A DNA stretch of 64,000 bases, taken from assembly GCA_963833215.1 (NCBI GenBank), contig CAWHXE010000018.1, positions 170,970-234,969 on the forward strand. Direction: 5' to 3'. The stretch is from an uncultured Cytophagales bacterium (GTDB lineage Bacteria; Bacteroidota; Bacteroidia; Cytophagales; Cyclobacteriaceae). The notes below the pieces were generated by a model that was not told the origin of the DNA, did not search any database, and saw only the letters and a program-made list of their open reading frames with translations. The translations under genes were made by a program, and so were the position numbers. How positions within the stretch are numbered: the first letter of the stretch is position 1; every line of letters starts with the position of its first letter. Of this stretch, positions 2,157-46,714 are shown one piece after another.

Positions 2157-2192
2157 GCAAAAAAAAGGAGTCCCTCGCAAAAGGGACTCCTT
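2157..2192 (-). terminator. Rho-independent terminator for the GH9 gene (minus strand); plausibly bidirectional
   Basis: Perfect 9-bp stem GGAGTCCCT/AGGGACTCC with a 6-nt loop. The plus-strand A8 run before it gives a T-run after the hairpin on the minus strand. Confidence 0.5.
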
Positions 2193-2260
2193 GGTTATAG
2201 CGTCAGCGTACGCTCCAGCAGGCTTCCAGTGCCTGTCCGGAAAGCTGAGAAGCACCGGAC

Positions 2261-5200
2261 CTACTTCCGCAACAGCACCCGGTGCGTAGTGCTATGGTCG
2301 TTGTCCAGCAACTGGATGGTGTACAAACCGTCGGCGAAGCGTGACAGATCGAGTTCGGTGGTTGCTGCTGCACTGGTCGGGTCGATATGCAGCACCACCC
2401 GGCCGCTGGCGTTGATCACCCGAATGGTGACCGGCCGATCCGATAACCTGGTTCCCTGTAGCGTCACGATGCCCGTTGTGGGGTTCGGGTAGGCGGTCAC
2501 CGCTTCGAGTAGTTGGTCATCGGCCAGCTTGCCGTTGGCCGAAGCGGTCCGGGCGTTTTCGTCGTCATCGCAGCGCACCACGAAGTAGTCGAACCACCTT
2601 CTTTTTGCTACCACCTTGTCGCAAGATACCTGCCCGATTACCAAGAATATGCGACCTAAACGCGAACCGGCAAGTCTAAATCGTACGTCTACCATCGTGC
2701 CAGCCTCTACCTGCCATCCCCGGGGGTGCGTGTACCCGTCGTCGTTGATGGCAACCGCATCTATGTACTTGCCATCCTCGCTAATGCCAGTAGGCTCGTA
2801 ACGCCATCCGTAGCGGCGATCCACCCCGCGCACGTCGGGCAGCAACGAAGTATTATGGCGGAAACCACTCTTGCGCAGCGGCTTGATCGAGCAGTCGTTG
2901 TGAAGCTCCCAGGCTCCCGCCTGGCCGTCGGTTCTGATTCCGGTGATCAGCCCTATCATGTAGGTTTCTCGCCGATGGAAAGTATAGTAGGGCACATCGC
3001 TCACGGCGACCACCTCGGCCATATCGGCGGGGAAATCGGCGGCGGTAAACGTGCAATCTCCTATCTGATACGTAGTAACCTGCTCGGTATTGAAGCGTAC
3101 ATTGTCCACGTAGAAGGTGCCGGTAGCGTCGTCGTTGGGGTTGGGGAAGATCAGTAGGTCTTTCACGCTGGCGGTTGTCCCTTCCGGAATCTCGATGGTC
3201 ACCTTGCTCCACGTACCACTATCGATGTCCACCGTTTGGAATCCGCCCAGCGACTGAACTCCGGCCGGGTCGTTCAGCACGACCAACAGTTCGGTCAACG
3301 CTACGCTGCCGTAAATCTGGAAGGAGAACGTCTCGTAGCGGTTGAGGCTTCGACCTACCTGTAGATTAAACCCAATCAGCTTAAACGTGCCTTTGTCCTT
3401 GTCGAAGCGCAGCACCTGGGCACTGGGGTTCGATGCATCTACCGAAGGGTTGGCCACTACGGCAATGGTGCCGCCCGCGCTGAACGCCTGGGTACGACCC
3501 GGCTCCACGATACCCACGGTCGGATTCACTCCGTCGAAGTCGGCTACGACCAGATCGCCCTGCAACACGTCGGGTACCACCACCACGGTGGCACTGTCGG
3601 AAACCGTGCCGTCGGCCGTACTAGCCACAACGGTGGCGCTTCCGGCCAACAAGGCGGTTACTTGCCCGTTGCTGTCAACACTGGCTACCAAAGTATCGAG
3701 GCTACTCCAGCGCAACAGAGAATCGGCATCAGCGGGCGTTACTTCCGCCACCAAGGTGGTGCTGGCCCCCGCTTCCAGGGTAACGGTTTCGGGGGTGAGG
3801 TTGATGGTGATGGTTGGCTCTTCCGGGGCAACACCATCCAGACGTACGTTGTCTACGTAGAAAGTGGCACTGGCCGCGTTGTTCGGATCAGGGAAGATGA
3901 GAACGGTCTTCAGGGTCGCGGCGGTTTCCTGGGGAAGATCCAACGTAATGGTACCCCAGGAATCGTTGATGTCAACTTCCTGGAAACTCTCGGCTACCCG
4001 GTTGCCGTCGGCATCGTCTAGAGCGACGTACACCTGCGACACCCCGGTTCCGTAGAGTTGAAAGCTGAACGTTTGGTAACCCGCCAGCGAAACCGCCTCG
4101 GGCAGATTGAACCCAATCAGTTGGAAGGTGCCCGCCGGTTTGTTCGAACTGCGCTACCCGCCCGCTGAGGTTGTCGGTCGTCGCGTCTGGGTTGTCTATA
4201 ATCGCCAGGGTGCCGCCCGAGCTAAACATTTGGGTGCGACCCGGTTCCACAACGCTCACCGTAGGAATCACTTCATCAAAGTCAGCCACGATCAGGCTGC
4301 GGGTGGCACCCGCTGGCGTGACGGTCACGTAGGCGCTGTCGGTAAACAATCCTTCCACGGTGGTAACGGTGACCAGCGCCACTCCTTCGCTGATGCCGCT
4401 TACCTGTCCGGAAGCGTTCACCTGGGCCACGCTTTCGTCGTTGCTCTGCCAGACGACGCTGCGCTCGGTAGCCGCCTCGGGTAGCACCGTGGCTACTAGC
4501 TGCACGGTTTCCCCTACGGCTACGTTTACGCTATCTGCCGACAAGGCAACGCCCGACACCGGAGCGGCGGGGTTGTCCCCAAGAAGTTTCACGTTATCTA
4601 CGTAAAACGTCGCGGTGGCCCCGTCGGTAGGATTAGGGAAGATTAACACGTCTTTGATGTTGCCTTCGGCCGTTTCGGGAATGGTGATCTCTACCGTCCC
4701 CCACCCGTTGTCAGCGATGGTAACCGATTGCTGGGTTTCTACCAGGTTCACGCCTTCGCCATTACTCATCACCACGAATACCTGGTTGATATTGGTACCG
4801 TACAACTGAAAGCTCAGCGTATTGAAGGGACTAACGGGCAGCGGCTCGGATAAATTAAAACCAATCAGTTTGTAAGTCCCTTCCTCCTTGTCGAAGCGAA
4901 CCACCTGCGCACTCTCGTTGTTGCTGTCCGCGTCGGGATTCTCGGCAAACGTCGTAGTGCCTCCGGCGGCGAACATCTGGGTTTTGCCCGGTTCTACCAC
5001 GCCGTTGGTGGGAATCACCTCATCGAAATCAGCCACCACGAAGGTGATGCCCGCCTGGGTAGCCGTTACCTGCACAAAAACACTGTCTGATACGTTACCG
5101 TCGGCGGTTGCCACCGATACGCTGGTCGTTCCTATTCCTACCCCGGTCACAATGCCGTTTCGATCAAGGGTAGCGACGGTCGGGTCTTGGGTGCTCCACA

Positions 5201-7708
5201 CCAGTCCGCCGCCCGCGTTGGCCGGGGTGGTGGTTAGCGTAAGTTGGACCGCTTCTTTGATTCCTAGCACCAACGAGTCGGGGCTCAAACTTACTGCCGT
5301 GGGGTTTTCTGAACCGGTGCTGAAATCGCCGAACATGCCATCGATCAGGAAGCCGTAGGTAACGGCGGCCGGGGCCGTGTTCTGATGGATAGTAAACTCG
5401 GCGGTGGTGGGGGCGGTACGTTGGTCGTACCAACGCTCGTGGCCGGGCCAGGTTTCGTAGGCCGGGAAGGTGGTTTTTCCGGCCCAGTCGTTGTCCCAGG
5501 GACCAAAGGCTTTGCCGTCGTTGATCCAGGGGCCGTAGGGAACGATTCCCGGATAAAACTCGGTCTGCACTTCATCAGCTTCGGTATCCAAGCCGTTGTA
5601 CCATGAGTCCAGGTGGAACACTTCGTTGGGATGGCGTTCGCCCAGGCCGGTGGCCCATACGGTGTTGAGCGGATTAGTACCCAAGAAGTAGTCGGAAGTG
5701 GTGTAGATGTTTGTCAGGTAGTTGTTGGCCCGGGCGGGGTTACTGTCTTTGGTGAGCATAAAACCCATCAGTCCCTCGAAGATCATGGGGGTGGTGGGCT
5801 GCCCCACCAGCATGGGGAAAAAGAAGTTGCCGCCGTAGCGCGTAGCCCGGCGTTCCACCACGTCGGTGAGCACGTTATCGGCTGAGTTCAGCGCGGCATC
5901 GCGCAAGGCCGCGTACAAACCGGGATCCACCGAACGGTTGGGACCCATGGTGAGATATGTGTACACCCCCCAGCGCTGGTCTTCGCCCAGCACGGTACCG
6001 CTGTTGATCCCTAGGGCATCGGCTTTCACCTGATCGTGGTAGGCGGCTTCACCGGTCAGTTTGTAGAGCGCGGCGGCAGCGTAAAGACGCTGGTCGCTGA
6101 GGCGCAGTCCGAATACCGGTTCCTCATCGCCGTCGCGGGTGTTGGCCTGCGCCCAGGCGTAGGCTTCGGCGGCTTCCTGCTGCCAGTTCACTCCTTCGGG
6201 GTCGGTCGCTCCGGCCTTTTGCAGGGCGATGGCCAGGTGGGCCGCAGTGGCCGCGTATTTATAGGTAGTGAAGGGGTCTTCGCCTGATACGATGTAGATG
6301 CGGTTCACGTCCTCGTACGAAGGCACCCCTTCGCCGTCGCCGCCGAACCAGTCGCCCGCCACGCGGGAACCCACTCCGCCGGTGCCGTAGCCCTTGGCGA
6401 TCAGCTCCTGCCGCGTGCGGTGAAAGAAGCGGGGCAGCCAGGCCGCTTCGTCTACCAAATCGGGCACCCCGTTGCCACTTTCGGGAATGTTAAGCTGGCT
6501 ATCCGGGATATTTAGCTGGGGCAAACTCGTACAAAAAGAGCAGCCAACTCGGGATGCGCAGGTGCGAGAAGTAGCCGTCCCAGTCGCCCGCATCCTGATA
6601 CCAACCGTAGGTATCTAAGGGACCCTGGATGCCCGCTTCGATGGCGGGTTTATCGTTATCCGAGTGGTCTTGGTTTTCCCAGTCTACGAAGCGGGAGGTG
6701 GTGTACTGCAACTTTCCTTCAAACCCGGGCGTCACGTTCGGATTGTGCGGGGCGGGGCGGACGTACTGGGTGTAGGGCTGCGTTAGCGCGATGCCACTGC
6801 GCTGGTGGTACAAGCCCCGGATGATGTTGTAGTAGGGCTCAAAGTAGGCGTTGTCATCAATCACGAAGGGAAACGAACTGCCGATGCCTTCCACGGCCAA
6901 GCGGTACTCGCCGGGAGTAGCGAAGGATCGAAAAATCGGCTTCGTAGACTTCGGCACCCAGGAAGTTGTCGTCGGGAGTATCGTCGGGCTGGCCGGTTTC
7001 TACGTTGTTGGCCGCTTTGCGAAAGGCAATGTTGCCCGAATAAGCCACGCTGTTGTCGGCGGTGTTCACCAGCCAGAAGGTGGCTCCGGCGTAGGAAGAA
7101 AGGTCTAAACCGCCCTTCTCGCCGGTCCAGTGGTACACGTAGCCGTATTTTTTGGGAGCGGCGGGCGCGTAGCCGATCATGTTCACGTGCACCGCTTCCG
7201 AGCGGGAGCTGACTAGCTTAGGATCGTACAGTAATTCGTAGCTATTGCCGTTGGCGGCCAGATCACCGGTGGTAATGGTGTAGGTGCTACCCGCCTGCAT
7301 GGGGTTGTCCAGGTACAGGTAAATCCAGTGTTCTTTGGCGTGGTCGGCATCAGAGTTGATACATCCTACTTCGTCGTTATAGTCTTGGCACAGCCAGGTG
7401 AAGTCGGTGCCCTTGCTTTTTCGCCCGATGTCGCTGGGTTGCACGCCGCCCCCGAAGTTGGAGTCGTCGGCACTGCTGATGGTGTAGGAGCCGAGTTGCG
7501 TGGCCAGCGCCACATTCAGTGGGTCTTGGATCACCCACTCGTTATTGCGGGCTTCGCCTTTTTGGTGATGACGAACGTAGCCGTCGTCGAAGTGCACCAT
7601 GATGATGCGGTCGGTGAGTGGGATCACCTCGACAATGTCGGAGGCGCGTCCGGTAAGGCTTAGCCCAAGCAGGGCAACCGCCGCGAGGAGAAGGTTGAGA
7701 TGTTTCAT
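2261..7708 (-). CDS. Secreted multidomain GH9 endoglucanase: signal peptide, CelD_N Ig-like domain, GH9 catalytic domain, 3 Big_2 domains alternating with 3 copies of a ~150-aa beta-sandwich (CBM-like) domain, and a T9SS C-terminal sorting domain; reading frame broken at 3 sites
   Basis: Three ORF fragments (6857..7708, 6499..6957, 3972..6593) plus 2261..4042 form one colinear protein. It carries the GH9 motifs GWYQDAGDWDGY and SGNGVPDLVDEAAW. The repeats have the form VADFDEVIPT...FYVDNVKLLG. The tail (AYPNPTTGIVTL...) is Por-secretion-like. Apparent 1-nt indels lie at ~6930-6934 (A5 run), ~6504-6508 (CCGGG) and ~4131-4133 (CCC). Confidence 0.7.
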
Positions 7709-33864: not shown

Positions 33865-36800
33865 ATGACAGCAGCGACCACTACCGAACTGGGCAGCAGC
33901 ACCTACGAAATCCTGCAAAACCGACTCCAGCAGCAAACCCAGCAGTTGCGCGAACGTTTGCAGCAACTCAACCAGGCCCGCCAGGAGGTATTCGGAGCCA
34001 TCGAGACCAAGTTGATCGCCACCGAGCGCATTCATACCGAGCACAACTGCGTGCCCTACGATATGGTGCCGCTGGACACTAAGTTTCTGTTCGGCTACAA
34101 CGTGCATCTGGGCCTCAAGACTGCCGTGGAGCTGTCCGATGTCTTTAGTGTTTACGACTATCAGGAGCACAGCTTCCGCTCGTTGGGCTACGAACTGCTC
34201 GATGATGCCACCTTCGCGGCTGACTTTCAGAAACTGTATAAGTACTACAAAGACACCAAATTTATTCGCTTCGTGCGTCGCGGGACCGTACCTGTATATG
34301 GTCTTCCGAATCAGCAAAAGTGCCAGCGACCTCAAGGCCTTCAAGTGGGAACTAGACGGCGAAGCCTTGGTCTACCGCGACAACCGCAGCGAGCACGAAA
34401 TTGAACTGCCCGAGCAGCACGACTTCGTCTGGCAACGCACCACCCGCGACGATCAGCGCGAGGGGAAGTATCCGCACATCTCGGTGGCCGACCGGGTGTT
34501 CGTCGAAACCATCGGCGGCGACCTGACCATCAAGGTAGAAGACAATACCGAACAGGGGCAGGGCATCTACCGCGAGGAAGTTGAGAACCCCGACCAGACG
34601 CTCGACGATGCCGAAGTACACTACGCACTGCTGGGCAACATCGTGCTGCTCAAAATCCGTCCGTACCAGGAAAAGCATTACCGATACATTGCCTACAACG
34701 CCAAGTTGCAAGAAGCCCGCCGCATCGACGCGGTGGCGCAGGCCGGTATTCTGCTACCTGATGATCAGGGTATTCTATTTCCGAACGGCTACTACCTACA
34801 AACCGGTGACTTCAAACAGTTTGATAGCGAACTAAACGACTTGCGCTTCGAGCAAAAGCTGATGTCGCCCAACGGCGAAGACTATCTGTACGTTTTCTAT
34901 CACGCTGAGCGGGGCGTGTACCAACTGCTGCCCTACAACATCATTGAGCAGACGGTGCGGACGCCCATCATCGGCCACGGCTACGCCATTTTCGAGAACG
35001 GTGAACTGTGCTACTTCAACGCCGACGCCGAACCCAAGAAGCACCACGCCATCCGCATCTGGCAAACCCCCTACGTGGGTCCCAACTTTCCGCTCACCGA
35101 GCAAAGCGATTCGTACCTGTTCAAGATTGGCAACCAGGACATTGTGCGGGCGATGGCCGAGTGCCAGGCCCTAATCAGCCTAGTGGAGAAGGGCGAAAGC
35201 TACCAGGATTTGTACGTCGACCTGCAAAAGCAAGCCACCACCGTGCTGGACGCCTACTACTGGCTGGACAGTCCCGAAGCGGCCACCATCAGCGAACCAT
35301 TGCGGGCCATCCGCGAAACCGCCGTTGCCGCCACCGACGAGTTCGAGAAGGTGCGCAACCTCCGCCAGAATACCCAGCATCGCACCGATGAAGTGCTGCA
35401 ATCGGCCGATCACCTGCAGCGCGACCTGACCAAGAAGTCGTACGAGCACATCAATGATTTTGTGGCGGCACTGTCGCAACTGCGGGAGCGGCGCGGCGAA
35501 GTGATCTCGCTCAAAGAACTGCGTTTTGTTGACGAGGCGCGCGTGGCGGAGTACGAAACCCAACTGGCCGAATCGGCCGAGCGAACGGCCCAGCGGTGCG
35601 TGCGCTTTCTGCTGCGCGACGATGCGCTGCAACCCTACCACCAGCGCGTTCAATCGCTGGAAACCGACATCGCGGGTGTAAAGAAGGTGGTAGAAGCCCA
35701 GGAGCTAACCGAGCAAATCAAGCAATTGTCGGGCGAACTGGAGATGCTCATCGAGATCGTAAGCAACCTGACGATTAAGGATGCGACCCAAACTACCCAA
35801 ATTGTCGACAACATCTCGGCCATCTTCTCCGAACTCAACAAAGCCAAAGCGCAACTACAGCGCCGCCGCAAAGAGCTGATGAGCGCCGAAGGCAAAGCCG
35901 AATTTTTTGCGCAGACCAAGCTCATCAATCAGGCGATGGTGAACTACCTCGACGTGTCGGACACACCCGAAAAGTGCGACGAGTACGCCAACAAGCTGAT
36001 GGTGCAACTCGAAGAACTGGAGGGTAAGTTTGCCGAGTTCGACGAGTTCATTGAGCAGATCGCCCAGCTGCGCGAGGAGGTTTACAACGCCTTCGAGTCG
36101 CGCAAGGTGCAGTTGGTAGAGGCCCGCAACAAGCGCGCTACCAACCTGGTGCAGTCGGCCGACCGCATCCTGAAGGCGGTGCAAAACCGGGTGAGTAGCA
36201 TCAAATCGGTGACCGAACTGAACGGCTACTTTGCCGCTGACCTGATGATCGAGAAAACGCGCCGCATCATCGAGGAACTGCAACAACTCGGCGACAGCGT
36301 TCGGGCCGACGAAGTGCAGAGTCGCCTGAAGTCGGCGCAGGAAGACGCGGTGCGTCAACTGAAAGATCGTACCGAGTTGTTCGTCGACGGGCAGGACGTG
36401 ATTCGCTTCGGGGAGCACGCCTTTTCGGTGAACACCGCCGACCTGGCCCTGACCACGGTGGCTAAAGACGATCAGTTGTTTTATCACCTCACCGGCACCA
36501 ACTTTTATGAGCCAATGGCTCCCGAGCAAGTGGAGCCCTACCGGCCGTACTGGAACCAGTCGCTGGTATCGGAAACCGCGGAGGTGTACCGCGCCGAGTT
36601 CCTGGCCTACCAGCTCTACCGGGAAACCGAAGCTAGCCCTTCGTTTGAAGAACTAGCGGAGAAAGATTCGGATGCGCTGACCGCCTACGTGCAGCAGCGG
36701 ATGGCCCCGCGCTACGACGAAGGCTACGTGAAGGGCGTGCACGACCACGACGCGGCACGCATCCTGGGAGCGTTGGTGACGATGCGGCGCTCGGCCGGAC

Positions 36801-38735
36801 TGCTGCGCTACCCGGCCGAAGCGCGGACCTGCGCCGCCTTGTGCTGGCTGCACTTTCTGGAAGCTCCCGGTGCGCCAGCAGCTCAACCACCAGCTCAAGG
36901 GAGCCGGAGCCATCCTGCACGTCTTTCCCCACAGCCACGAGTTTGACCAGGTGCAGCAGGCCATCACCGCGGTGGTGGACGAGTTTGTGCGGGAAACCCA
37001 GCTTTTCGGCGGCAAAACCGTGGCCCCGGCGGCTGAGTATCTCTTCTACGAACTGATCAGCGACGACGATTTTGCCATCGATCAGGCGTCGGTGACGCTG
37101 CGCGACCAGTTTAGGAAGTACCTCGAAAAAAGCCAGGCCACTGAGGCCTACCGGCAGTCAGTAGACAATTTGCAGGATGATCGGTGGCTTCAGTACGGCC
37201 TCATCCGCCGGTGGGTGCGTTCGTTTGCCGAGCAGACCGAGCAGGACGTTCGCTTTGCCGATGAGGCCGCCCTGCTGCTGTTCTCCGACCAACTGGATAC
37301 CGACCAGGTGGCTGAAGCCACCCTGCACCAAACCCTCACCGGTTTGCAGGGTAACCATCCGCTGCTCCCGGAAGGAAACTACGCGCTGGACTACAATCAG
37401 TTCATGGATCGGCTGTCGGTTTTCGCCGAAGAAACGGTGCCTACGTTCCGAGCGTTTCAGGCGCTCAAGCGGCAGCTAACGGCAGACTTCACGAATGAGC
37501 TGCGGCTGGAGGAATTTAAACCGCGGGTGATGTCGTCCTTCGTGCGCAATCAACTGATTGACCAGGTCTACCTGCCGTTGATCGGAGCTAATTTGGCCAA
37601 GCAAATCGGCACCGCCGGAGCCAACAAGCGCACCGATCTGATGGGCATGCTGCTGCTCATCTCGCCGCCCGGCTACGGCAAAACCACCCTGATGGAGTAT
37701 CTGGCGAACCGCCTGGGCATTATTTTTATGAAAATCAACGGCCCGGCCATTGGGCACGCGGTGACGGCCGTAGACCCGGCGCAGGCTCCCAACGCCGGGG
37801 CGCGCGAGGAGCTGGAAAAGCTCAACCTGGCCTTCGAGATGGGCGACAACGTGATGATCTACCTGGACGACATCCAGCACTGCCACCCCGAGTTTTTGCA
37901 GAAGTTTATCTCCCTCTGCGACGCCCAGCGCAAGATCGAGGGCGTGTACAAGGGACGCAGCAAAACCTACGACTTTCGGGGTAAGAAGGTGTGCGTGGTG
38001 ATGGCGGGCAACCCCTACACCGAAAGCGGCGACAAGTTTCAGATTCCCGATATGCTGACCAACCGCGCCGACATCTACAACCTGGGCGACATCATCGGCG
38101 ACTCGGCCGACGCCTTCAAGCTGAGCTACATCGAGAACTGCCTGACCTCCAATCCCGTGCTCAACCAACTGGCCAGCAAAAGTCAGCGCGACGTGCAAAC
38201 GCTGGTGCGGATGGCCGAAACCGGCGAGCGGGCCGGGGCCGAGTTTGAGACCAACCATACGGCCGAAGAAGTGCGGGAGTACGTGACCGTGCTGGAAAAA
38301 CTACTGACTGTGCGCGACGTGGTGCTGCGGGTGAACACCGAGTACATTCACTCGGCGGGACAGGCGGACGCGTACCGCACCGAGCCATCCTTTAAGTTGC
38401 AGGGATCGTACCGCGACATGAACAAGCTGGCCGAGCGGGTGGTGCCGGTGATGAACGAGGCCGAACTGCAAACCCTAATCCGCGCGCACTACGAAAACGA
38501 AGCCCAGACCCTCACCACCGGGGCCGAGGCCAATCTGCTAAAGCTCAACGAAATGCGCAGCTTGCTTACCGACGAAGAGCAGCAGCGCTGGGAAGACATC
38601 AAAGCAATTTTTGTGAAGCAGCAACGCGCCAAAGGATACGGTCAGAACGGAATGGCGCAGGCGGTGGAGACGATGGAAGACATTTCGGGCAGCCTGCGCG
38701 GAATTGCGGAGGCGCTGCGGGGGAAAGAGGATTAG
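33865..38735 (+). CDS. Giant (~1,620 aa) protein: unassigned N-terminal ~450 aa, long coiled-coil middle, C-terminal AAA+ ATPase (MoxR/AAA_5-like) domain; two frameshifts
   Basis: Three colinear ORFs (33865..34404, 34139..36946, 36870..38735). Walker A LLISPPGYGKTT, Walker B VMIYLDDIQ, sensor-1-like VCVVMAGNPYT. Frame breaks at GGG(G) 34281-34284 and CC(C) 36866-36868. Confidence 0.7.
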
Positions 38736-38965: not shown

Positions 38966-39346
38966 ATGAAAGTAAAACCCATCAAAACCGAAGAGGACTA
39001 CCGAAGGGCACTCGGGCGGCTTGAGTTAATTTTTGACGCTTCAACCGACACTGATGAAGGTGACGAAGCAGAAATTTTATCTCTACTTATAGAAAATTAC
39101 GAAAACGAGTATTATCCCATTGAGGCACCCGACCCGATTGAGGCTATCAAAATTCGAATGGAAGAGCTCAACATGCGCCAGAAGGACTTGGTGGGGATCA
39201 TCGGGGGCAAAAGCCGCGTATCGGAAATCTTGAACCGAAAGAAAAAGCTGACCGTAGAAATGATCAGAGAATTAGAGCAATTGCTTCATATCTCCGCATC
39301 GGTTTTAGTGCATGATTATCAGCTTACCAGCCAGCAAGAAAAGTAA
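38966..39346 (+). CDS. HigA-like XRE-family HTH protein (antitoxin-type regulator)
   Basis: 126 aa with a C-terminal HTH (LNMRQKDLVGIIGGKSRVSEILNRKKKLTVEMIRELEQ). AT-rich local composition. Confidence 0.6.
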   Translation: MKVKPIKTEEDYRRALGRLELIFDASTDTDEGDEAEILSLLIENYENEYYPIEAPDPIEAIKIRMEELNMRQKDLVGIIGGKSRVSEILNRKKKLTVEMIRELEQLLHISASVLVHDYQLTSQQEK

Positions 39347-39433
39347 CAGCGTTTGTAGCGGAGAAAAACGGTTCTATTCCCATTAAATATGCGGAGATTA
39401 GTCCGTATATTTACCGCAAAACGACGATAGTTC

Positions 39434-40501
39434 ATGCCGAGATACATATACGAATACGAGCGTTGGCCTGAATTTGCCTGGGATAATAAACAAATCAGTT
39501 TGATTTTAGGCAAGGTTCAACATCTACAAGGAAAAGTTTTCGGGCAAATGGGAGCGCTTGGTTTTGCAGTAAAGGAAGAAACAATGTTGTCAACCTTAAC
39601 TTTGGATGTTCTAAAATCGTCTGAGATTGAAGGAGAAATGCTTAATTATGAACAGGTTCGTTCCTCGATAGCGAGAAGATTAGGATTGGAATATGCAGGT
39701 ATCGTTCACGTTGATAGAAATGTGGAAGGTGTTGTAGAAATGATGCTTGATGCAACGCAAAGGTTTGATAAACCCCTTGATCATGAACGGATTTTTGGAT
39801 GGCATGCCGCACTATTTCCAACCGGCTGGAGCGGAATACATAGAATAGATACGGGGTGTTATCGTGATGGCGAAATGCTGGTAGTTTCAGGTCCAATGGG
39901 AAGAGAGAAAATACACTTTCAAGCACCATCACCCAATGTTGTAAAAAAAGAAATGGATGAGTTTCTAGATTGGTTTAATCAAGAAACTGAACTTGACGAG
40001 GTGCTAAAAGCCGCAATTGCCCATTTTTGGTTCATCATAATTCATCCCTTTGATGATGGGAACGGGCGAATTGCCAGGGCATTATCAGACATGCTACTTG
40101 CTCGTTCCGAAGAAAGTTCTCAAAGATTTTATAGTTTGTCAAACCAGATTCTTTCTGAGAAAAAAAAGTATTATGCGGTCTTGCAGGAAGTACAATATAG
40201 TTCTGGCGATATAACGGATTGGCTAAATTGGTTTCTAAATTGTCTGTATAAAGCATTAGAGAATACGGAAGAAACGTTAAAGCGGGTTCTCAAAAAAGCA
40301 GATTTCTGGGATAAGCACAAAGAAACCTTGTTGAATAGTCGTCAAAGATTAATGTTGAACAAACTATTTGATGGATTTGATGGCAAGTTAAAATCATCTA
40401 AATGGGCTAAGATTGCTAAGTGTTCGGCTGATACTGCATTAAGAGACATAAAAGATTTGATTGAAAAAGGAATTTTACAGCAAGAAGAATCAGGAGGTTG
40501 A
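39434..40501 (+). CDS. Fic/DOC-family protein (probable AMPylator), with an N-terminal DUF4172-like region and a C-terminal wHTH
   Basis: 355 aa with the canonical Fic motif HPFDDGNGRIARAL. AT-rich. Confidence 0.85.
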   Translation: MPRYIYEYERWPEFAWDNKQISLILGKVQHLQGKVFGQMGALGFAVKEETMLSTLTLDVLKSSEIEGEMLNYEQVRSSIARRLGLEYAGIVHVDRNVEGVVEMMLDATQRFDKPLDHERIFGWHAALFPTGWSGIHRIDTGCYRDGEMLVVSGPMGREKIHFQAPSPNVVKKEMDEFLDWFNQETELDEVLKAAIAHFWFIIIHPFDDGNGRIARALSDMLLARSEESSQRFYSLSNQILSEKKKYYAVLQEVQYSSGDITDWLNWFLNCLYKALENTEETLKRVLKKADFWDKHKETLLNSRQRLMLNKLFDGFDGKLKSSKWAKIAKCSADTALRDIKDLIEKGILQQEESGG

Positions 40502-40745
40502 AGTACAAACTACGAATTTACGGAAGAATGGAGAATGCACTAGCTACAACAATGCCCATAAAAGACGAAATAGCCACTCTTAAAATTGCGATACCACTGT
40601 TGCCCTCACCGGTCAGCGAACCAGTGAAAGCCAAGAATAATCGTAAAGCTAACCAGTAGCGTCAATTACTATAATATTTCGTGATTGCGTTCAATGAATA
40701 TCATAATGATTTGTGAATGCGGCAGCAAGTGAGTAGCTTTGAAGG

Positions 40746-41864
40746 ATGATACCAAGAACGCTTGCGACACAGATACTATCAAAAATCGGTCGTGGTAAAG
40801 CCATCATGGTAATCGGGCCACGTCAAGTAGGCAAGACTACCCTGATTTTGAAATATCTGGAAGGACTCGACTACAAGTTCTTCGATGGCGACGATCCGGT
40901 AACCCGGACTTCCCTGGATACCCCTAACACCGAGCAGATCCGGGTGCTGCTTGAGAACAAAAAAGTGGTGTTTATTGATGAGGCCCAGCGAATTAATAGT
41001 ATAGGGCTAACCATGAAGATCATCGTTGATCAGTTTAAGGATGTGCAACTATGGATTAGCGGCTCTTCTTCTTTCTCGCTATTTAATGAGTTGAACGAAC
41101 CGCTAACGGGGAGGAAATGGGAATACGAGATGTTTCCAATCAGCTGGGAAGAACTGGAGCAGCACACCGGGCACTTAACGGCGGAAAGACAGTTAGAAGA
41201 CCGATTGCGATTCGGCATGTATCCCGATGTGCTCAACAATCCAGGCGAAGAGATTGAAATATTACAGAACTTAGTGAATAGCTATCTGTATAAAGATATT
41301 TTGTCTTACGCTGGTCTAAAAAAACCGGACGTTTTGGATAAACTCGTCAGAGCCCTAGCCCTGCAGGTGGGCAGTGAGGTAAACTACCAAGAACTCAGCC
41401 AGTTGGTTGGGGTGGATCGCAACACGGTTGAAAAATACATATCGGTTCTGGAAAAGGGTTACGTGGTGTTTCGCCTACCCAGTTACAACAGAAACGTGAG
41501 GAATGAGATCAAGAAGGGTAGAAAGATTTACTTCTACGACAATGGAATCAGGAACATGATTATCGGTTCTATGAATGAGATCACCTTGCGTCCGGATTTG
41601 GGGGCGCTGTGGGAGAACTTTCTTATTTCGGAACGTATCAAACAAAACAGGTATAAGTTGACCTTAGCAAAATCGTATTTCTGGAGAACCACCCAGCAAC
41701 AGGAAATAGACTACGTAGAGGAGAAAGGAACGGGGCTAAAGGCTTATGAATTTAAGTGGAGTCCCAGGAAAAAAGTGAGATTATCCAAGACTTTCACCGA
41801 CGCTTATCAAGTGGAAGGCGAGGTGATCACGAGGGAAAACTTTCGGGATTTTGTAGTGATATAG
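40746..41864 (+). CDS. AAA+ ATPase of the COG1373 type (AAA_14 + DUF4143); paralog of 17246..18439
   Basis: Walker A GPRQVGKTT, Walker B VVFIDEAQ, DUF4143-like C-terminus. Confidence 0.8.
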   Translation: MIPRTLATQILSKIGRGKAIMVIGPRQVGKTTLILKYLEGLDYKFFDGDDPVTRTSLDTPNTEQIRVLLENKKVVFIDEAQRINSIGLTMKIIVDQFKDVQLWISGSSSFSLFNELNEPLTGRKWEYEMFPISWEELEQHTGHLTAERQLEDRLRFGMYPDVLNNPGEEIEILQNLVNSYLYKDILSYAGLKKPDVLDKLVRALALQVGSEVNYQELSQLVGVDRNTVEKYISVLEKGYVVFRLPSYNRNVRNEIKKGRKIYFYDNGIRNMIIGSMNEITLRPDLGALWENFLISERIKQNRYKLTLAKSYFWRTTQQQEIDYVEEKGTGLKAYEFKWSPRKKVRLSKTFTDAYQVEGEVITRENFRDFVVI

Positions 41865-41881: not shown

Positions 41882-43851
41882 CTACGACACCACAATGCCC
41901 AACTGCTCGGCGATCTCCATCTGGGTTTTCTTGAGCAACTGGTGGTTCTGCAAGATTTTTAGCTGGGCGGCTTCGTCCGGTTCGTTGAGCAGCCCCTGCC
42001 GGGTTTCTTGCAGCAACTGGTTCAGGTACACGTACTTCAGCTCCAGAATGCCCCGCTCGATCACCTCGTGGAGCACGTCTTTCTCCTGGGGCACATGGAT
42101 TTTGTAGCGCAGCTCCCAGTTTTCGCTCAGCACGTAGTGGTCCACCACCATATCAATCACTTCCTTGGCGATCACTTCATCGCCTTCGCCAATGAGCCGT
42201 TCTTCGGTCACCGCCACCCCCTGCGCGGTGAGGGCTTGGTAGCGGTCAAAAATCTGCGCATATACCTCGGTTTGCAGGGTGATGTCTTCCAGTTCCGAGA
42301 AAATGTAGTGACAAACCTTCGTTTCTTCGTCCACCGAATAATCGCCGTAGAGCACCAGCAGGCGAGTCACGCCCTTCTCCTTGTAGTAAACCGGCGGACG
42401 GCCCACCTCGGCGGCGGGTTCGGGTAGGGTTGGCGGGGCACCGTCGTTGACTGGTTCGGCGGAGCTTATTCCGGGAAACACTTCGGATTGCGAATTTTGG
42501 GAGGCCCGTCGCGCTTCGCTGCGTTGCTGCTGGATGTGAATTTTGTTAAGCTCAGCAAACAGCACGGCCTCGTCCATATCCAGGCGCTGTCCGGTGGTTT
42601 TCACGTACACCTGCCGCTGGATGGGGTCGGGCACCTTGGCGATGCTGCCCACCACCTCGCGGATCAGTTCGGCCTGCCGGATGGGGTCCGACTGCGCCTC
42701 GCGCTCGAAAATGGTCGTTTTGAAGGCAATAAAATCCTCCTGATGCTCGGTGAGGTAGTCACGCAGTTCGCTGGTGCGCAGTTGGCGGGCCAGGGTGTCG
42801 GGGTCTTCGCCCTCGGGCAGCACCACCGCCCGCACGTTGAGCCCGCCCTCCAGCAGCATATCGATGCCCCGAAACGAGGCTTTGAGTCCGGCCGCGTCGC
42901 CGTCGAAGAGCACCGTCACGTTTTTGGTGTAGCGCGCAATGAGGCGAATCTGCTCGTGGGTGAGCGAGGTGCCCGACGAGGCCACCACGTTCTTGATGCC
43001 CGCCTGGTGGAGCGAGATCACGTCGGTGTAGCCTTCTACCAGGTAACACATATCCTCCTGTCGGATAAACTGCTTGGCCTGGTAGAGTCCGTAGAGCACG
43101 TCGCTCTTGTGGTAGATTGGCGTCTCGGGCGAGTTGATGTACTTCGCAACTTTCTCCGTTTTATTACCCAAAATCCGTGCGCCAAAGGCCAGCACCCGGC
43201 CCGAGATATTGTGCACCGGAAACATTACCCGCCCGCGGAAGCGGTCGTAGCTTCGCTCCGGTTTTCCACTCCTCCGCTTCTTTTTTCACCACCAAACCCG
43301 CTTTTTCCAGCAGCGTCGGGTTGTGCCCCTTCGCGGTGGCTTCCTTGAGCAGCCCGTCCCACTGGTCGAGGCTATAGCCCAGCCCAAACTCCCGGATGGT
43401 TTCTTCACTAAAGCCGCGTTCCTTAAAATAAGAAAGTCCGATGGACTGTCCTTCTTCGTTTTCCCACAGCATCTGCTGAAAGTAGGCGTTGGCAAATTTC
43501 ATGACGATAAACAGGCTCTCGCGCTCGTTCTGCGCCAGCAGCTGCTCATCGGTGGGGGCTTCTTCGGCAATCTCGATGCCGTACTTCTTGGCCAGGTGCT
43601 TGATGGCTTCCAGGTAGTTCATCCCCTCCACCTCCATCAGGAAGGTAATCGCATCGCCCGCCTTGCCCGAGCTAAAGTCTTTGAAGAACCCCTTGGAGGG
43701 CACCACGTAGAACGAGGGCGTGCGCTCCTGGTTAAAGGGACTGAGTCCGCGGTAGTTGCTGCCCGATTTTTTCAGGTTCACGTAGTCGCCCACCACCTCC
43801 AGCAGGTCGGCCCGGGCCTTGATTTCGTTCGATGGTTTCGCGGGGGATCAT
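41882..43851 (-). CDS. dnaG: DNA primase DnaG; two frameshifts
   Basis: Zinc-binding N-terminus (LKKSGSNYRGLSPFNQERTPSF), TOPRIM core (MFPVHNISGRV...EGYTDVISLHQAG). The true N-terminus MIPRETIER starts at 43851. Indels in the T6 run at 43281-43286 and the TTT run at 43824-43826. Confidence 0.85.
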
Positions 43852-44145
43852 GGTGAGATCGGTTGAATTTCCTGAATGTGCTAAAGATAATAGAGGTTTC
43901 TGATAGATTCTCAAGGGTCATGCGGGGCGTCCCACGTACGACCCTTCGGATAAAAATTATCAGAATAAAGTTTGATGTACATATAGTATTTGTTTTCTAA
44001 TTGATGATAACGGTTAGTATATGAAAAGTAGGCGGGTTCGAAGCACGAAACTTTCAGTTAAGCATCCAGTTTGATACGAGCCAAAAGCCCCGAATTTATT
44101 ACTCTTTCGTCTATTTTTTTATATACGTTGTTACCACCTGCTTTT

Positions 44146-44838
44146 TTATTTCTCTTCTTCTGTTTTAGGGAAATCATAATTAATCTCTCCTTTTATTCCG
44201 TAGAAAAATAGATATTGTCCGTGAGCAGTTATTTGTAAATGAGTTCCCCATTGTTGTGCGATACCTGCTGAAATAAGAAACGCAACATTATCATCAAATT
44301 GCGAAAACCCACGATAAAATGGCTTTTCTTCTTTTGATATTTCTTCAAGGAAAGAGATGGCAGTTAAGTTTAATCTTTCAACACAATGACATAGGCTTAA
44401 AAAATTATTCCATCCAAATTTCCCGTTTAAATGTGATGCAAAAAGAGTAGCCAAAATTTTAGATTTCTCAATTTCCAAAACCCGTTCATTAAGAATCATT
44501 ATTTGCTCTACAACAGAGTCTCTGTATTTTTTATCGGTGTTAAATTTTTCCTGAAATTTTTTAACTGTTGAATCATCAAGTTTTGAAGAATGGAATTCTT
44601 TTAAGAAAGTTAGGAGCTTCTTTGCAAAATAAATTTCCCTAATTTTCATTCCGCCCTTCACGATTCCAACTATTGATTTGACAACAGGTATTTCCTTAAT
44701 AGCATCATTGTCTAGAAAAGAATCTAACGCTAGTTCAGCATAGTCAACCGATAAGTCCATTGCGGGTGAAGTCAAGCCGTCTTGAACGACTTTTTCAATT
44801 GCCTTTTCGTTTTTGTTGTCGGATTCCGATTTTATCAT
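44146..44838 (-). CDS. Hypothetical protein (~230 aa) in an AT-rich island
   Basis: ORF from MIKSESDNKNEK. No motif recognised. Strongly AT-rich codon usage unlike the neighbouring genes. Confidence 0.45.
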   Translation of the reverse strand: MIKSESDNKNEKAIEKVVQDGLTSPAMDLSVDYAELALDSFLDNDAIKEIPVVKSIVGIVKGGMKIREIYFAKKLLTFLKEFHSSKLDDSTVKKFQEKFNTDKKYRDSVVEQIMILNERVLEIEKSKILATLFASHLNGKFGWNNFLSLCHCVERLNLTAISFLEEISKEEKPFYRGFSQFDDNVAFLISAGIAQQWGTHLQITAHGQYLFFYGIKGEINYDFPKTEEEK

Positions 44839-45104
44839 TTTAATAGGTGGTAACAACCGTATAAATACACCAGGTGCGTTTATTTGCAATATAGCGACAA
44901 GGTGGCTATTTGGCCAAGTTTGCCAGGAAGAAGCCCGTTTTTGGGTAGAATATCTATCATTAGCATGTTTTTCTATTAAATGCGTGGGCAAACGCTTACA
45001 AACGTTTATTTGGAGACAAGCATCCCTACCGCCCCCCGACAAATTACGAACCTCCCTGAGCAACCTACGGAAGAATTACCACTCTTTTCAACCCTGCCAC
45101 ATCA

Positions 45105-45320
45105 TCACCGAACCTCAGTGCTTCAACGCTCCACCTTCGAGGTTCACGCGCGAACCTAATAGCTTGATCGTTGAACCAAAAAGGTTCAGCGGCGAACCTT
45201 TTAGCTTCCTCATTGAACCTCCGAGTTACAAAAGCGAACCTCCGAGGTTCAAAATTCAACCTCGAAGGTTCAAAAACGGACCTCGGAGGTTCAAACGTTA
45301 ACCTCGAAGGTTCAAACGCA
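45105..45320. repeat. Array of about ten ~22-bp-periodic repeats, each a small palindrome GAACC-N5-GGTTC followed by AAA
   Basis: The four best copies lie at 45236-45320 (GAACCTCCGAGGTTCAAA, CAACCTCGAAGGTTCAAA, GGACCTCGGAGGTTCAAA, TAACCTCGAAGGTTCAAA); copies decay toward the 5' side. The tract is intergenic between divergent genes. Confidence 0.7.
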
Positions 45321-45490
45321 ATATTTTTAGGTTAAAATAGGGGTTTCCAGCCGAATATTATTTGCTAAAATAACCATTCACTACCTTCTTACTACAACGT
45401 AATGAAAATAAGCATCTGTTAAGATTTCCTTCCTCATTCATTATTCCTTGCTCGATATTCGATATTTTTGCGCTTCACGCTCATCAAAGT

Positions 45491-46714
45491 ATGGAAAACA
45501 CGTCCGGTTCTGCCACCCTGGTCACTGAGAAAAAAGCTGTTAACAAAACCGTGCTACCCATCCTGTTCGCCATCAGCGCGGCGCACCTGCTCAACGACAC
45601 CATGCAGTCGGTAATTCCGGCCATCTATCCGCTTCTTAAGGAGAACTACACGCTCTCTTTCACCCAGATCGGCCTGATCACGCTGGCCTTTCAGCTCACC
45701 GCTTCGCTGCTGCAACCGGTGGTGGGCTACCTCACCGACAAAACGCCCCGTCCCTACTCGCTGGTGGTGGGCATGGTGTTTTCGCTGGCGGGGCTGCTGC
45801 TGCTCGCGCAGGCGGCGCACTACGCCTTCATCCTACTGGCGGTGGGCTTGGTGGGCATGGGCTCGGCGGTGTTTCATCCCGAGTCGTCGCGGGTGGCCTA
45901 CCTGGCCTCGGGCGGCAAGCGGGGCCTGGCCCAGTCCATCTTTCAGATCGGTGGCAACGCGGGCAGCGCCATTGGTCCGCTGCTGGCGGCGATTATTATT
46001 ATTCCTTTCGGACAGGGCCACGTGGCTTGGTTCGGACTGGCGGCGGTGTTGGCCATGATCGTGCTCACCCGGGTGGCTGGTTGGTACCAGGATAACCTAC
46101 AGCAAAAAAAAAGCCGCCCCCCGTCGGTAGAAGAAACTCCTTCGCGGCTGCCACGCCGCACGGTGAACGTTACTATCGGGTTGTTGCTGGTGCTTATCTT
46201 CTCTAAGTATTTCTATCTGGCCAGCCTCACCAGTTACTTCACCTTCTTCCTAATCGACAAGTTCGCGCTGTCGGTGCAGCAGTCGCAGGTGCACTTGTTT
46301 ATATTTTTGGCCGCGGTGGCGGTGGGCACCCTGATTGGCGGACCGCTGGGCGACCGCTTCGGCCGCAAGTACGTGATCTGGTTTTCCATCCTGGGCATCG
46401 CTCCGCTCACCTTGCTGCTGCCCTACGCCAACTTGTTCTGGACAACGACCTTGTCGGTGTTTATCGGCATGGCGCTGGCATCGGCCTTTCCGGCGATCTT
46501 GGTCTACGCCCAGGAGTTGATGCCCGGCCGGGTGGGTATGATCTCCGGCCTGTTCTTCGGTTTCGCCTTTGGCATGGGCGGGCTGGGCTCCGCACTGTTG
46601 GGCAAACTCGCCGACGTCACCAGCATTGCCTACGTGTTTCAGCTGTGCGCTTTTCTTCCGCTGTTGGGAGTAATAGCCGCCTGGTTGCCGCGCGTAGCAC
46701 CGCAGGAAGAATAA
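45491..46714 (+). CDS. MFS transporter (Fsr/fosmidomycin-resistance-like subfamily)
   Basis: 407 aa, 12 TM helices, MFS signature regions. Confidence 0.75.
   Translation: MENTSGSATLVTEKKAVNKTVLPILFAISAAHLLNDTMQSVIPAIYPLLKENYTLSFTQIGLITLAFQLTASLLQPVVGYLTDKTPRPYSLVVGMVFSLAGLLLLAQAAHYAFILLAVGLVGMGSAVFHPESSRVAYLASGGKRGLAQSIFQIGGNAGSAIGPLLAAIIIIPFGQGHVAWFGLAAVLAMIVLTRVAGWYQDNLQQKKSRPPSVEETPSRLPRRTVNVTIGLLLVLIFSKYFYLASLTSYFTFFLIDKFALSVQQSQVHLFIFLAAVAVGTLIGGPLGDRFGRKYVIWFSILGIAPLTLLLPYANLFWTTTLSVFIGMALASAFPAILVYAQELMPGRVGMISGLFFGFAFGMGGLGSALLGKLADVTSIAYVFQLCAFLPLLGVIAAWLPRVAPQEE

Follow-up and report, generated by a model that had tools for sequence, protein, structure and literature searches.

A phased repeat array in the dnaG-MFS spacer

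The 64-kb window analyzed here (the whole stretch of 64,000 nucleotides from contig CAWHXE010000018.1 of an uncultured Cytophagales bacterium) carries a tandem array of short palindromic repeats in a 652-bp spacer, which is bordered on one side by a minus-strand open reading frame (ORF) for a 230-aa hypothetical protein and on the other side by an MFS gene (45491..46714) encoding an FSR-type transporter, with dnaG nearby (Table 1). The array consists of ten head-to-tail units (U1-U10) in an exact 21-bp register. The first-pass annotation, made from the sequence alone, had described about ten palindromic repeats with a GAACC-N5-GGTTC core in an intergenic region of about 650 bp. The unit number, the core, and the setting agree with the present analysis, while the 22-bp period given there does not, since Tandem Repeats Finder returned periods of 21 and 42 bp. 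In the best units, the core is extended to a GAACCTC-N-GAGGTTC dyad followed by an A-run. The sequence GAACCTCNNAGGTTC with up to two mismatches gave 18 strand-hits in the window versus 1.3 expected from shuffles, with 17 of the 18 lying inside the array, and the array was found at this single place in the window. The units are separated by a 6-bp A-rich linker without spacers, and CRISPR repeats are 23-50 bp long, in agreement with the earlier statement that this is not a CRISPR array. An AT-rich stretch (45320-45400) adjoins the array.

The array forms the distal half of a conserved non-coding module of approximately 0.5 kb (44846-45340/45405), hereafter the right arm. In an alignment of seven homologous copies, the module runs from a junction palindrome through an almost invariant block and a leader of approximately 190 bp to the array and about 20 more conserved bases. 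Read on the minus strand, the invariant block resembles a promoter directed toward the neighboring gene, here termed the cargo, whose start codon lies approximately 50 bp beyond the block in the window and approximately 56-60 bp beyond it in the homologous loci L065 and L092, suggesting that the block is the putative cargo promoter. The junction palindrome shows two compensatory pair changes in L092 (ATAACCGA/TCGGTTAT versus ATAAACGC/GCGTTTAT), and is a genuine stem or symmetric site. Beyond the cargo, a second conserved non-coding segment, the left arm, is common to the orthologs and the paralog L092. Long terminal inverted repeats between the two arms were not found, only a 13-bp inverted repeat flanking the cargo. 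At the dnaG-proximal edge of the inserted islet, before the left arm, a GC-rich hairpin (AAGGGTC...GACCCTT, 43913-43946) is nested in a longer TTCTGATA...TATCAGAA palindrome, the core of which is tandemly duplicated in L065 and L130. The segment 44851-45100, which covers the leader, is among the three most curved 204-bp segments of the window in an approximate wedge model.

Table 1. Features of the islet in the window (1-based window positions), and look-alike arrays at other loci (positions within each locus)
Feature	Position	Strand	Description
Whole inserted islet	43903..45405		Approximately 1.5 kb, defined against the empty dnaG-MFS spacer of L128
Left arm	43952..44145	+	Conserved non-coding DNA of approximately 0.2 kb
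Far-side inverted repeat TATACGTTGTTACCACC	44122..44138		Directly past the cargo stop codon
Cargo gene	44146..44838	-	230-aa hypothetical protein, GC 0.34, no family match
Near-side inverted repeat GGTGGTAACAACCGTATA	44846..44863		Pairs with 44122-44138
Terminal palindrome/hairpin at the module-cargo junction	44861..44883		Pattern ATAAAyrc...gyrTTTAT
Almost invariant block GCAATATAGCGACAAGGTGGCTATTTGGCCAA	44886..44917	-	Minus strand reads TTGGCC-18-TATATT, promoter-like, toward the cargo
Leader	44918..45047	+	Conserved non-coding DNA from the promoter-like site to the array; repeated CGTTTATTTG at 44877 and 45003
Three unit-length, very degenerate blocks (GAACCTCCCTGAGCAACCTAC ...)	45048..45109	+	Before the array, one base out of register, kept in all copies
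Ten-unit 21-bp array	45110..45319	+	U1-U6 degenerate yet conserved; U7-U10 near-perfect GAACCTCnGAGGTTC plus A-run
Unit starts U1-U10	45110, 45131, 45152, 45173, 45194, 45215, 45236, 45257, 45278, 45299
Degenerate 11th unit AATATTTTTAGGTTAAAATAG	45320..45340	+	Conserved distal end of the module; L092 alignable only up to here
Native MFS -7 box TATTTTTG	45463..45470	+	Bacteroidota type; outside the islet, also present at the empty site
Look-alike arrays	L009 128-358; L035 215-592; L044 15-161; L074 5330-5490; L102 6217-6447
Look-alike arrays, continued	L071 2322-2510; L023 7106-7245; L056 966-1091; L083 5434-5540; L118 379-610

Homologous modules and exchangeable cargo

Homologs were sought by a pattern scan with one genome per species, which returned mostly unrelated hairpin pairs together with the true homologs L065, L092, and L111, and further loci were taken from contigs encoding orthologs of the MFS protein (L130, L131, and L132 with the module; L128 and L129 without it). 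Seven homologous modules were obtained. Those of the window, L065 (the syntenic locus in an uncultured Cytophagales metagenome-assembled genome [MAG]), L130, L131, and L132 occupy the same locus, while those of L092 and L111 lie at two other loci of one MAG (CBDCHN01). The search of related genomes for the unit, which the first-pass annotation had proposed, thus yielded six further copies of the module, four of them orthologous and two at other loci of a single genome. Leader and array are kept in all seven copies, with 8-10 units per array, and hidden Markov models of the leader and the left arm match only these seven loci among all sequences fetched. A metagenome scan with an invariant 19-mer gave two matches, neither of which is BLAST-similar to the module.

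Comparison with the close relative L128 revealed that the islet is an insertion. At this empty site, the MFS protein is 96% identical, the start codons of dnaG and the MFS gene are 75 bp apart, and both arms are absent. The insertion point holds 24 unrelated bases, with no clean target-site duplication. The native TATTTTTG box and its spacer are intact in the empty allele and lie outside the insertion, so the array is not part of the MFS core promoter, and a requirement of the array for that promoter was rejected. The arms recur at other chromosomal positions as well, and are thus part of the element rather than of the host core. The islets measure 1.5-4 kb, are chromosomal, and occur at several loci in one genome.

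The cargo differs in all seven copies and is always low in GC (0.30-0.41 versus 0.55-0.60 for the host). In place of the 230-aa protein of the window, it comprises an AIPR abortive-infection protein in L065, a 271-aa protein of no recognised family plus an insert resembling a miniature inverted-repeat transposable element (MITE) in L130, a DUF433 protein with an SDR and a cNMP-binding protein in L131, a 603-aa and a 171-aa protein of no recognised family in L132, a DUF3267 zincin-like protein in L092, and a 183-aa protein of no recognised family in L111. In all seven islets, the gene next to the module is directed away from it, and L122-L124 show one orientation. Of the features of an invertible segment (inverton or shufflon type), the flanking inverted repeats described below are thus present, while a second orientation was not seen in these loci. 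The description of an AT-rich, foreign island beside dnaG is borne out. The MITE-like element of L130 (approximately 6228-6404), with terminal inverted repeats GTATGTGATTAGCGTC...GACGCTAATCACATAC, is inserted in the junction palindrome of the module.

The 230-aa gene of the window is bracketed at its start and stop by an inverted repeat of approximately 18 bp, TATACGGTTGTTACCACC, and the same inverted repeat brackets the homolog in Mariniflexile (Flavobacteriia; L122 4968-4985 and 5687-5706), the protein of which is 82% identical. Analogous pairs that co-vary with the cargo were found in L065 (TTGTTATCTACA), L092 (ATTGYTGTGTGT), and L130 (TTGTTCTGCACC). The protein is patchily distributed across Bacteroidota, and its homologs have mobile-element neighbors in two of three contexts examined (integrase/KAP-NTPase; relaxase/T4CP/resolvase). 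From these sequence features, the gene resembles a one-gene cassette that is delimited by inverted repeats and travels between classes. The inner boundary AACGAACGTAT appears similar to the inverted-repeat consensus of Bacteroides fragilis Mpi; a literature search on the array motif and on the Mpi-type consensus returned nothing usable. The AlphaFold model of the 230-aa protein (mean pLDDT of 78) gave non-significant, winged-helix-like structural matches, all with E>2. The repeat array is absent at the homolog loci that were examined, and the protein is one of seven unrelated, interchangeable cargos, making the earlier proposal that it binds the array unlikely.

Other changes were observed around the same slot. 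In L129, a different 4.7-kb insertion (2190-6915) occupies the dnaG-MFS slot without the module; it carries three genes of no recognised family plus a gene for a Wzy_C-domain protein and is flanked by an att-like direct repeat of approximately 60 bp of the dnaG 5' end. In the more distant relative L133 (7442-17248; MFS protein 80% identical), an AsnC/Lrp-type regulator precedes the MFS gene, the module is absent, and DUF433 and a type I CRISPR-Cas operon (cas6, cas3, cas4, cas1) follow the MFS gene. Across dnaG, the window has a second low-GC, defence-type island (38966-41864), partly common to L130 and L131, with genes for an HTH_3 protein, a Fic/DUF4172 protein (PADLOC SoFic, 1.4e-47), and a DUF4143 AAA ATPase (PADLOC PDC-S01, 3e-160). 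The HTH_3 protein, also named earlier as a candidate binder, is disfavored because its region is absent from the array-bearing L130 and L132. The dnaG gene itself (41882-43851) is frame-split in the window, with an extra T near 43829 relative to four relatives and a frame change at approximately 43164-43225, and a DUF3686 ATPase gene (34139-38735) is frame-split at approximately 36870-36946; both are intact in relatives. Either homopolymer errors of long-read sequencing or pseudogene formation would account for these breaks. Because several source assemblies resemble long-read MAGs that contain homopolymer errors, single-base indels were not used as evidence.

Conservation pattern of the array

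Analysis of the seven-copy alignment revealed that substitutions are unevenly distributed over the units. In U1-U7, the AACC half-site has no variable column among 28, compared with 34 of 119 elsewhere (Fisher p=3e-4) and 7 of 28 in the mirror GGTT half-site (p=0.01). Gap runs are absent from the 147 array columns, while seven occur in the 227 leader columns, and the identity between paralogs is 84-88% in the array versus 71-82% in the leader. The module of the window shares 96% identity with that of L065, compared with 85-88% for the flanking genes. Unit number (8, 9, or 10) changes only by whole distal units in 21-bp steps, and every degenerate proximal unit retains an individual form across the seven copies, including the paralogs, the adjacent leaders of which are only approximately 71-81% identical. 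The decay of the 5' units is therefore older than the split between the paralogs and has not progressed since then. The expansion and decay proposed in the first-pass annotation hold only for the distal units, as the 5' units are retained one by one and do not decay freely.

Variable columns are spread evenly over the three codon phases, both in the array (12/49, 10/49, and 11/49) and in the leader (25/72, 26/73, and 28/70). In L111, a TAA interrupts the open EPxRF frame, and the ATG of a short leader ORF is missing. The module is thus non-coding, as neither a codon periodicity nor the EPxRF frames and start codons are conserved, and a coding repeat was rejected on these grounds. Together with the register, the substitution data agree with the earlier view of a non-coding array of phased dyads, of the kind used by multimerising DNA-binding proteins.

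Similar palindromes in other genomes

The AACC-N5-GGTT site occurs five times in the 64-kb window, with four of these inside the array, and is absent from 47 kb of L128, L129, and L133. Of the features that define repetitive extragenic palindromic (REP) sequences and bacterial interspersed mosaic elements (BIMEs), clustered imperfect palindromes are therefore present, while high-copy dispersal is not seen in the 64 kb and 47 kb examined; the possibility raised in the first-pass annotation that the unit is a REP-like element dispersed at hundreds of loci was not borne out at these loci. No REP-associated tyrosine transposase (RAYT, tnpA-REP) gene was seen in the annotated part of the window (approximately 31-50 kb), for which no dedicated search was made.

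Outside this lineage, many genomes of other Bacteroidota, of Ignavibacteria, and of candidate phyla (CPR) contain AACC-N5-GGTT palindromes as hairpin pairs, either dispersed or clustered, that resemble REPs and REPINs (L110, with 27 in 5.7 kb, L107, L097, L091, L005, L060, and others). In addition, distant phyla carry 21-bp tandem arrays with a GAACCT-N3-AGGTT(C) core in intergenic regions of unrelated context (look-alike arrays in Table 1), with hosts including Flavobacterium, Aquimarina, a delta-proteobacterium, and Nostocales, where one array lies in the nirA-nrtP spacer of a Nostoc. A context shared by the look-alike arrays in other phyla was rejected, as their neighbors are unrelated and homology is confined to the units. 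These arrays may reflect a common binder, a slippage-prone palindrome, or search bias.

Proposed role of the array and alternative explanations

The organization of the islet suggests a model, to which we assign a probability of roughly 0.4, in which the array serves in cis as a phased platform to which a DNA-binding protein attaches, with control or insulation of the outward cargo promoter, or organization of the arm, as its most likely role. The islet comprises the left arm of approximately 0.2 kb, one to three cargo genes that vary between islets, are low in GC and horizontally acquired, and lie between short inverted repeats where examined, and the right arm, with its junction hairpin, outward promoter-like site toward the cargo, leader of approximately 190 bp, and 8-10 phased 21-bp repeats. 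A protein would bind the AACC repeats on one face of the helix, as 21 bp corresponds to two turns, and would oligomerise along them; the resulting oligomer may regulate or silence the cargo promoter, or insulate it, at whatever locus the islet occupies, and the array might also mark the arm for cargo exchange. Since the neighboring gene is interchangeable, the gene for the binder must lie elsewhere. RNA hairpins formed by single units are weak (0 to -5 kcal/mol) or absent (four of ten units, U1, U3, U5, and U6, are fold-less), which favors recognition at the DNA level.

The anatomy of the islet, the conservation pattern and non-coding nature of the module, the insertion relative to an empty site, the multiple copies, and the variable cargo are observations, while we infer binding, the nature of the binder, and the regulatory outcome. 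Several points weigh against this model. The stronger conservation of AACC relative to GGTT is unlike the prediction for a symmetric dimer site, and the distance of 190-430 bp between the array and the putative cargo promoter is long for simple repression. A strong intrinsic bend of the array was not supported, its curvature ranking only at the 9th percentile within the window in the approximate wedge model, which is based on dinucleotides. Homology among the seven copies makes their common geometry a single observation and not seven; the higher identity of the module relative to its flanks could reflect either selection or recent horizontal spread; and the array count for the source genome refers to the 64-kb window. 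We also consider, as an unlikely extension, that the islets represent an undescribed class of small, recombinase-less cassette platforms in Cytophagales, an analogue of integrons built from different parts. Here, two dedicated non-coding arms would capture and express single foreign, often defence-type genes bounded by inverted repeats, and a recombinase or silencer encoded elsewhere would use the array for docking or regulation.

A doubtful alternative is that the array provides accessory sites at a recombination or transposition end, where a recombinase or transposase acting in trans would mobilize the islet or exchange cassettes at the junction palindrome, comparable to an attI region with accessory repeats or to the multi-site ends of Tn7 and Mu. 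The subterminal position of the array, 20-90 bp from the right boundary of the islet, is consistent with this, as are the insertion relative to an empty site, the occurrence at three or more distinct loci, the compensatory changes in the junction hairpin, the different island with its 60-bp direct repeat at the same site in L129, and the exchange of cargo between conserved arms, with co-varying inverted-repeat bounds where examined and the same bounded gene in Mariniflexile. However, there is no recombinase in or beside any of the seven islets, the left arm has neither a matching array nor a GAACC motif, the empty site with its 24 unrelated bases shows no clean target-site duplication, and homologous recombination through the conserved arms can explain the cargo swaps. 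Known transposon ends and att arms carry far fewer than ten tandem sites. We likewise regard as unlikely that the array is a functionless minisatellite, i.e., a palindromic unit amplified by slippage or unequal crossing-over that hitch-hikes in a mobile non-coding module, possibly derived from the REP-like AACC-N5-GGTT hairpins common in other Bacteroidota. Any tandem duplication results in an exact period, copy number varies in whole distal units, and these units are the most alike, as recent expansion predicts; similar palindromes are dispersed or clustered in other Bacteroidota and form 21-bp tandem arrays in unrelated contexts in several phyla. The minisatellite explanation is countered by the retention of the degenerate proximal units, unit by unit and with zero indels, in paralogs with diverged leaders, by the invariance of the AACC positions, by the higher conservation of the array relative to the adjacent leader, and by the lack of a dispersed family in this lineage.

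An action of the array at the RNA level is improbable. The array would then be transcribed, most plausibly on the minus strand toward the cargo, and would either terminate or insulate against read-in transcription through its tandem units, or yield a regulatory or antitoxin-like RNA with repeated hairpins. Minus-strand units read GAACCUCGGAGGUUC-NN-UUUUG, i.e., a hairpin plus UUUU, and in L092 a LytTR regulator gene approximately 110 bp away runs into the array in the minus-strand sense; on these two observations, an insulator or terminator role is conceivable but weakly supported. The order of repeats, leader, and cargo on one strand also resembles that of type III toxin-antitoxin loci. Fold z-scores of the whole module are low (-5 to -6) on both strands, as expected for any palindromic repeat. 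In addition to the weak unit hairpins, no compensatory changes were found within units across the seven copies, where the 3' arm drifts while the 5' arm is fixed; the terminator scan of the module did not exceed the shuffle expectation; and a Bacteroidota-type promoter (TAnnTTTG) is absent upstream on both strands within the module. A known RNA family was rejected, as Rfam gave no match in the window at the gathering threshold and, below it (E-value mode), only miRNA-hairpin noise. A cognate RNA antitoxin is implausible because the cargo proteins are unrelated, and no ToxN/AbiQ/CptN-family endoribonuclease is among the seven cargo proteins. The first-pass annotation had named replication iterons and partition centromeres, besides arrays of transcription-factor sites, among the possible roles, and an origin or centromere of a plasmid- or phage-derived element now appears very improbable. 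The array does show directly repeated units within the 17-22-bp range of iterons, in helical phase (ten units at 21 bp, two helical turns), next to an AT-rich stretch and in foreign DNA. Nevertheless, Rep families are absent from the window neighbors (Pfam and NCBIfam) and from the neighbors in six related islets (Pfam), and genes resembling ParA, ParB, ParR, and ParM are absent from the seven islets and their neighbors; the small size, chromosomal location, and multiple copies of the element further disfavor these readings. No DnaA box (TTATCCACA with up to one mismatch) occurs in 43801-45500 and no GC-skew switch was seen, rejecting oriC/oriV. A plasmid, phage, or viral origin was rejected as well, since blastn gave no match in PLSDB (72,556 plasmids) or INPHARED (50,697 GenBank phages) and pattern scans of IMG/VR viral contigs gave nothing relevant. 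A protein-coding heptad repeat, in which the frame GAA CCT xxx AGG TTC encodes EPxRFxx, is the least probable of all and close to negligible. Its period equals seven codons, and the frame is open on one or both strands in several copies, including a 127-aa ATG ORF in L065, but substitutions show no three-base periodicity, L111 has the in-frame TAA, the start codon is not conserved, and the open frame differs between copies. As a separate candidate, a tRNA or tmRNA integration target was rejected, as neither gene is present in the window.

If the array is a protein-binding platform of a cargo-carrying islet, it would offer a handle on how non-gut Bacteroidota take up and express single foreign or defence genes, and perhaps silence them, when no integrase is linked. 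The leader and array would then form a searchable non-coding signature for such hot-spots, and the binder could be a new regulator or recombinase. If it is only a minisatellite, it would be a useful variable-number marker of little biological weight.

Comparison with known systems

The array resembles the iteron and centromere arrays of plasmids (R6K and RK2 iterons, R1 parC, pSK41 parC, and F sopC), which have tandem units of approximately 20 bp, phasing of about two turns, and in some cases dyads, and in which the repeats bind a dedicated protein cooperatively. In contrast to those arrays, it is chromosomal and multi-copy, has no linked rep or par genes, DnaA box, or plasmid or phage match, and stands beside an interchangeable neighbor. 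Similarity to REP/BIME clusters lies in the short, imperfect palindromes arranged in tandem in intergenic DNA, the AACC-N5-GGTT type being REP-like in other Bacteroidota. Unlike REP/BIME clusters, the present repeats are undispersed in their lineage, lie within a larger conserved module, and are conserved unit by unit in strict register. Type III toxin-antitoxin systems (ToxIN, AbiQ/antiQ) also have short tandem repeats that precede a possibly toxic or defence gene in the same orientation. Their units, however, measure 34-40 nt and not 21 nt; here, a 230-bp leader with a promoter-like site separates the repeats from the gene, no ToxN-family protein is present, and the same repeats pair with unrelated proteins.

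At the level of the whole islet, the integron platform (attI, the Pc promoter, and cassettes) and CALIN-like clusters share with the islet a conserved non-coding platform, an outward promoter, abutting variable acquired genes, and a recombination-like palindrome at the junction. Integrons have no counterpart to the ten-unit repeat array, while the islets have no integrase (intI absent in the seven islets and their flanks) and no attC sites with R''/R' cores (GTTRRRY), and their cargo lies between inverted repeats of a different sequence type instead of direct core sites (44122-44138/44846-44863 in the window; analogous pairs in L065, L092, L130, and L122). As in the minimal mobile elements of Neisseria and core defence hot-spots, one chromosomal slot is occupied by different foreign genes in related strains, here with an abortive-infection gene among them, and empty alleles exist as well; the conserved flanks of the present islets differ from theirs in being dedicated non-coding arms.

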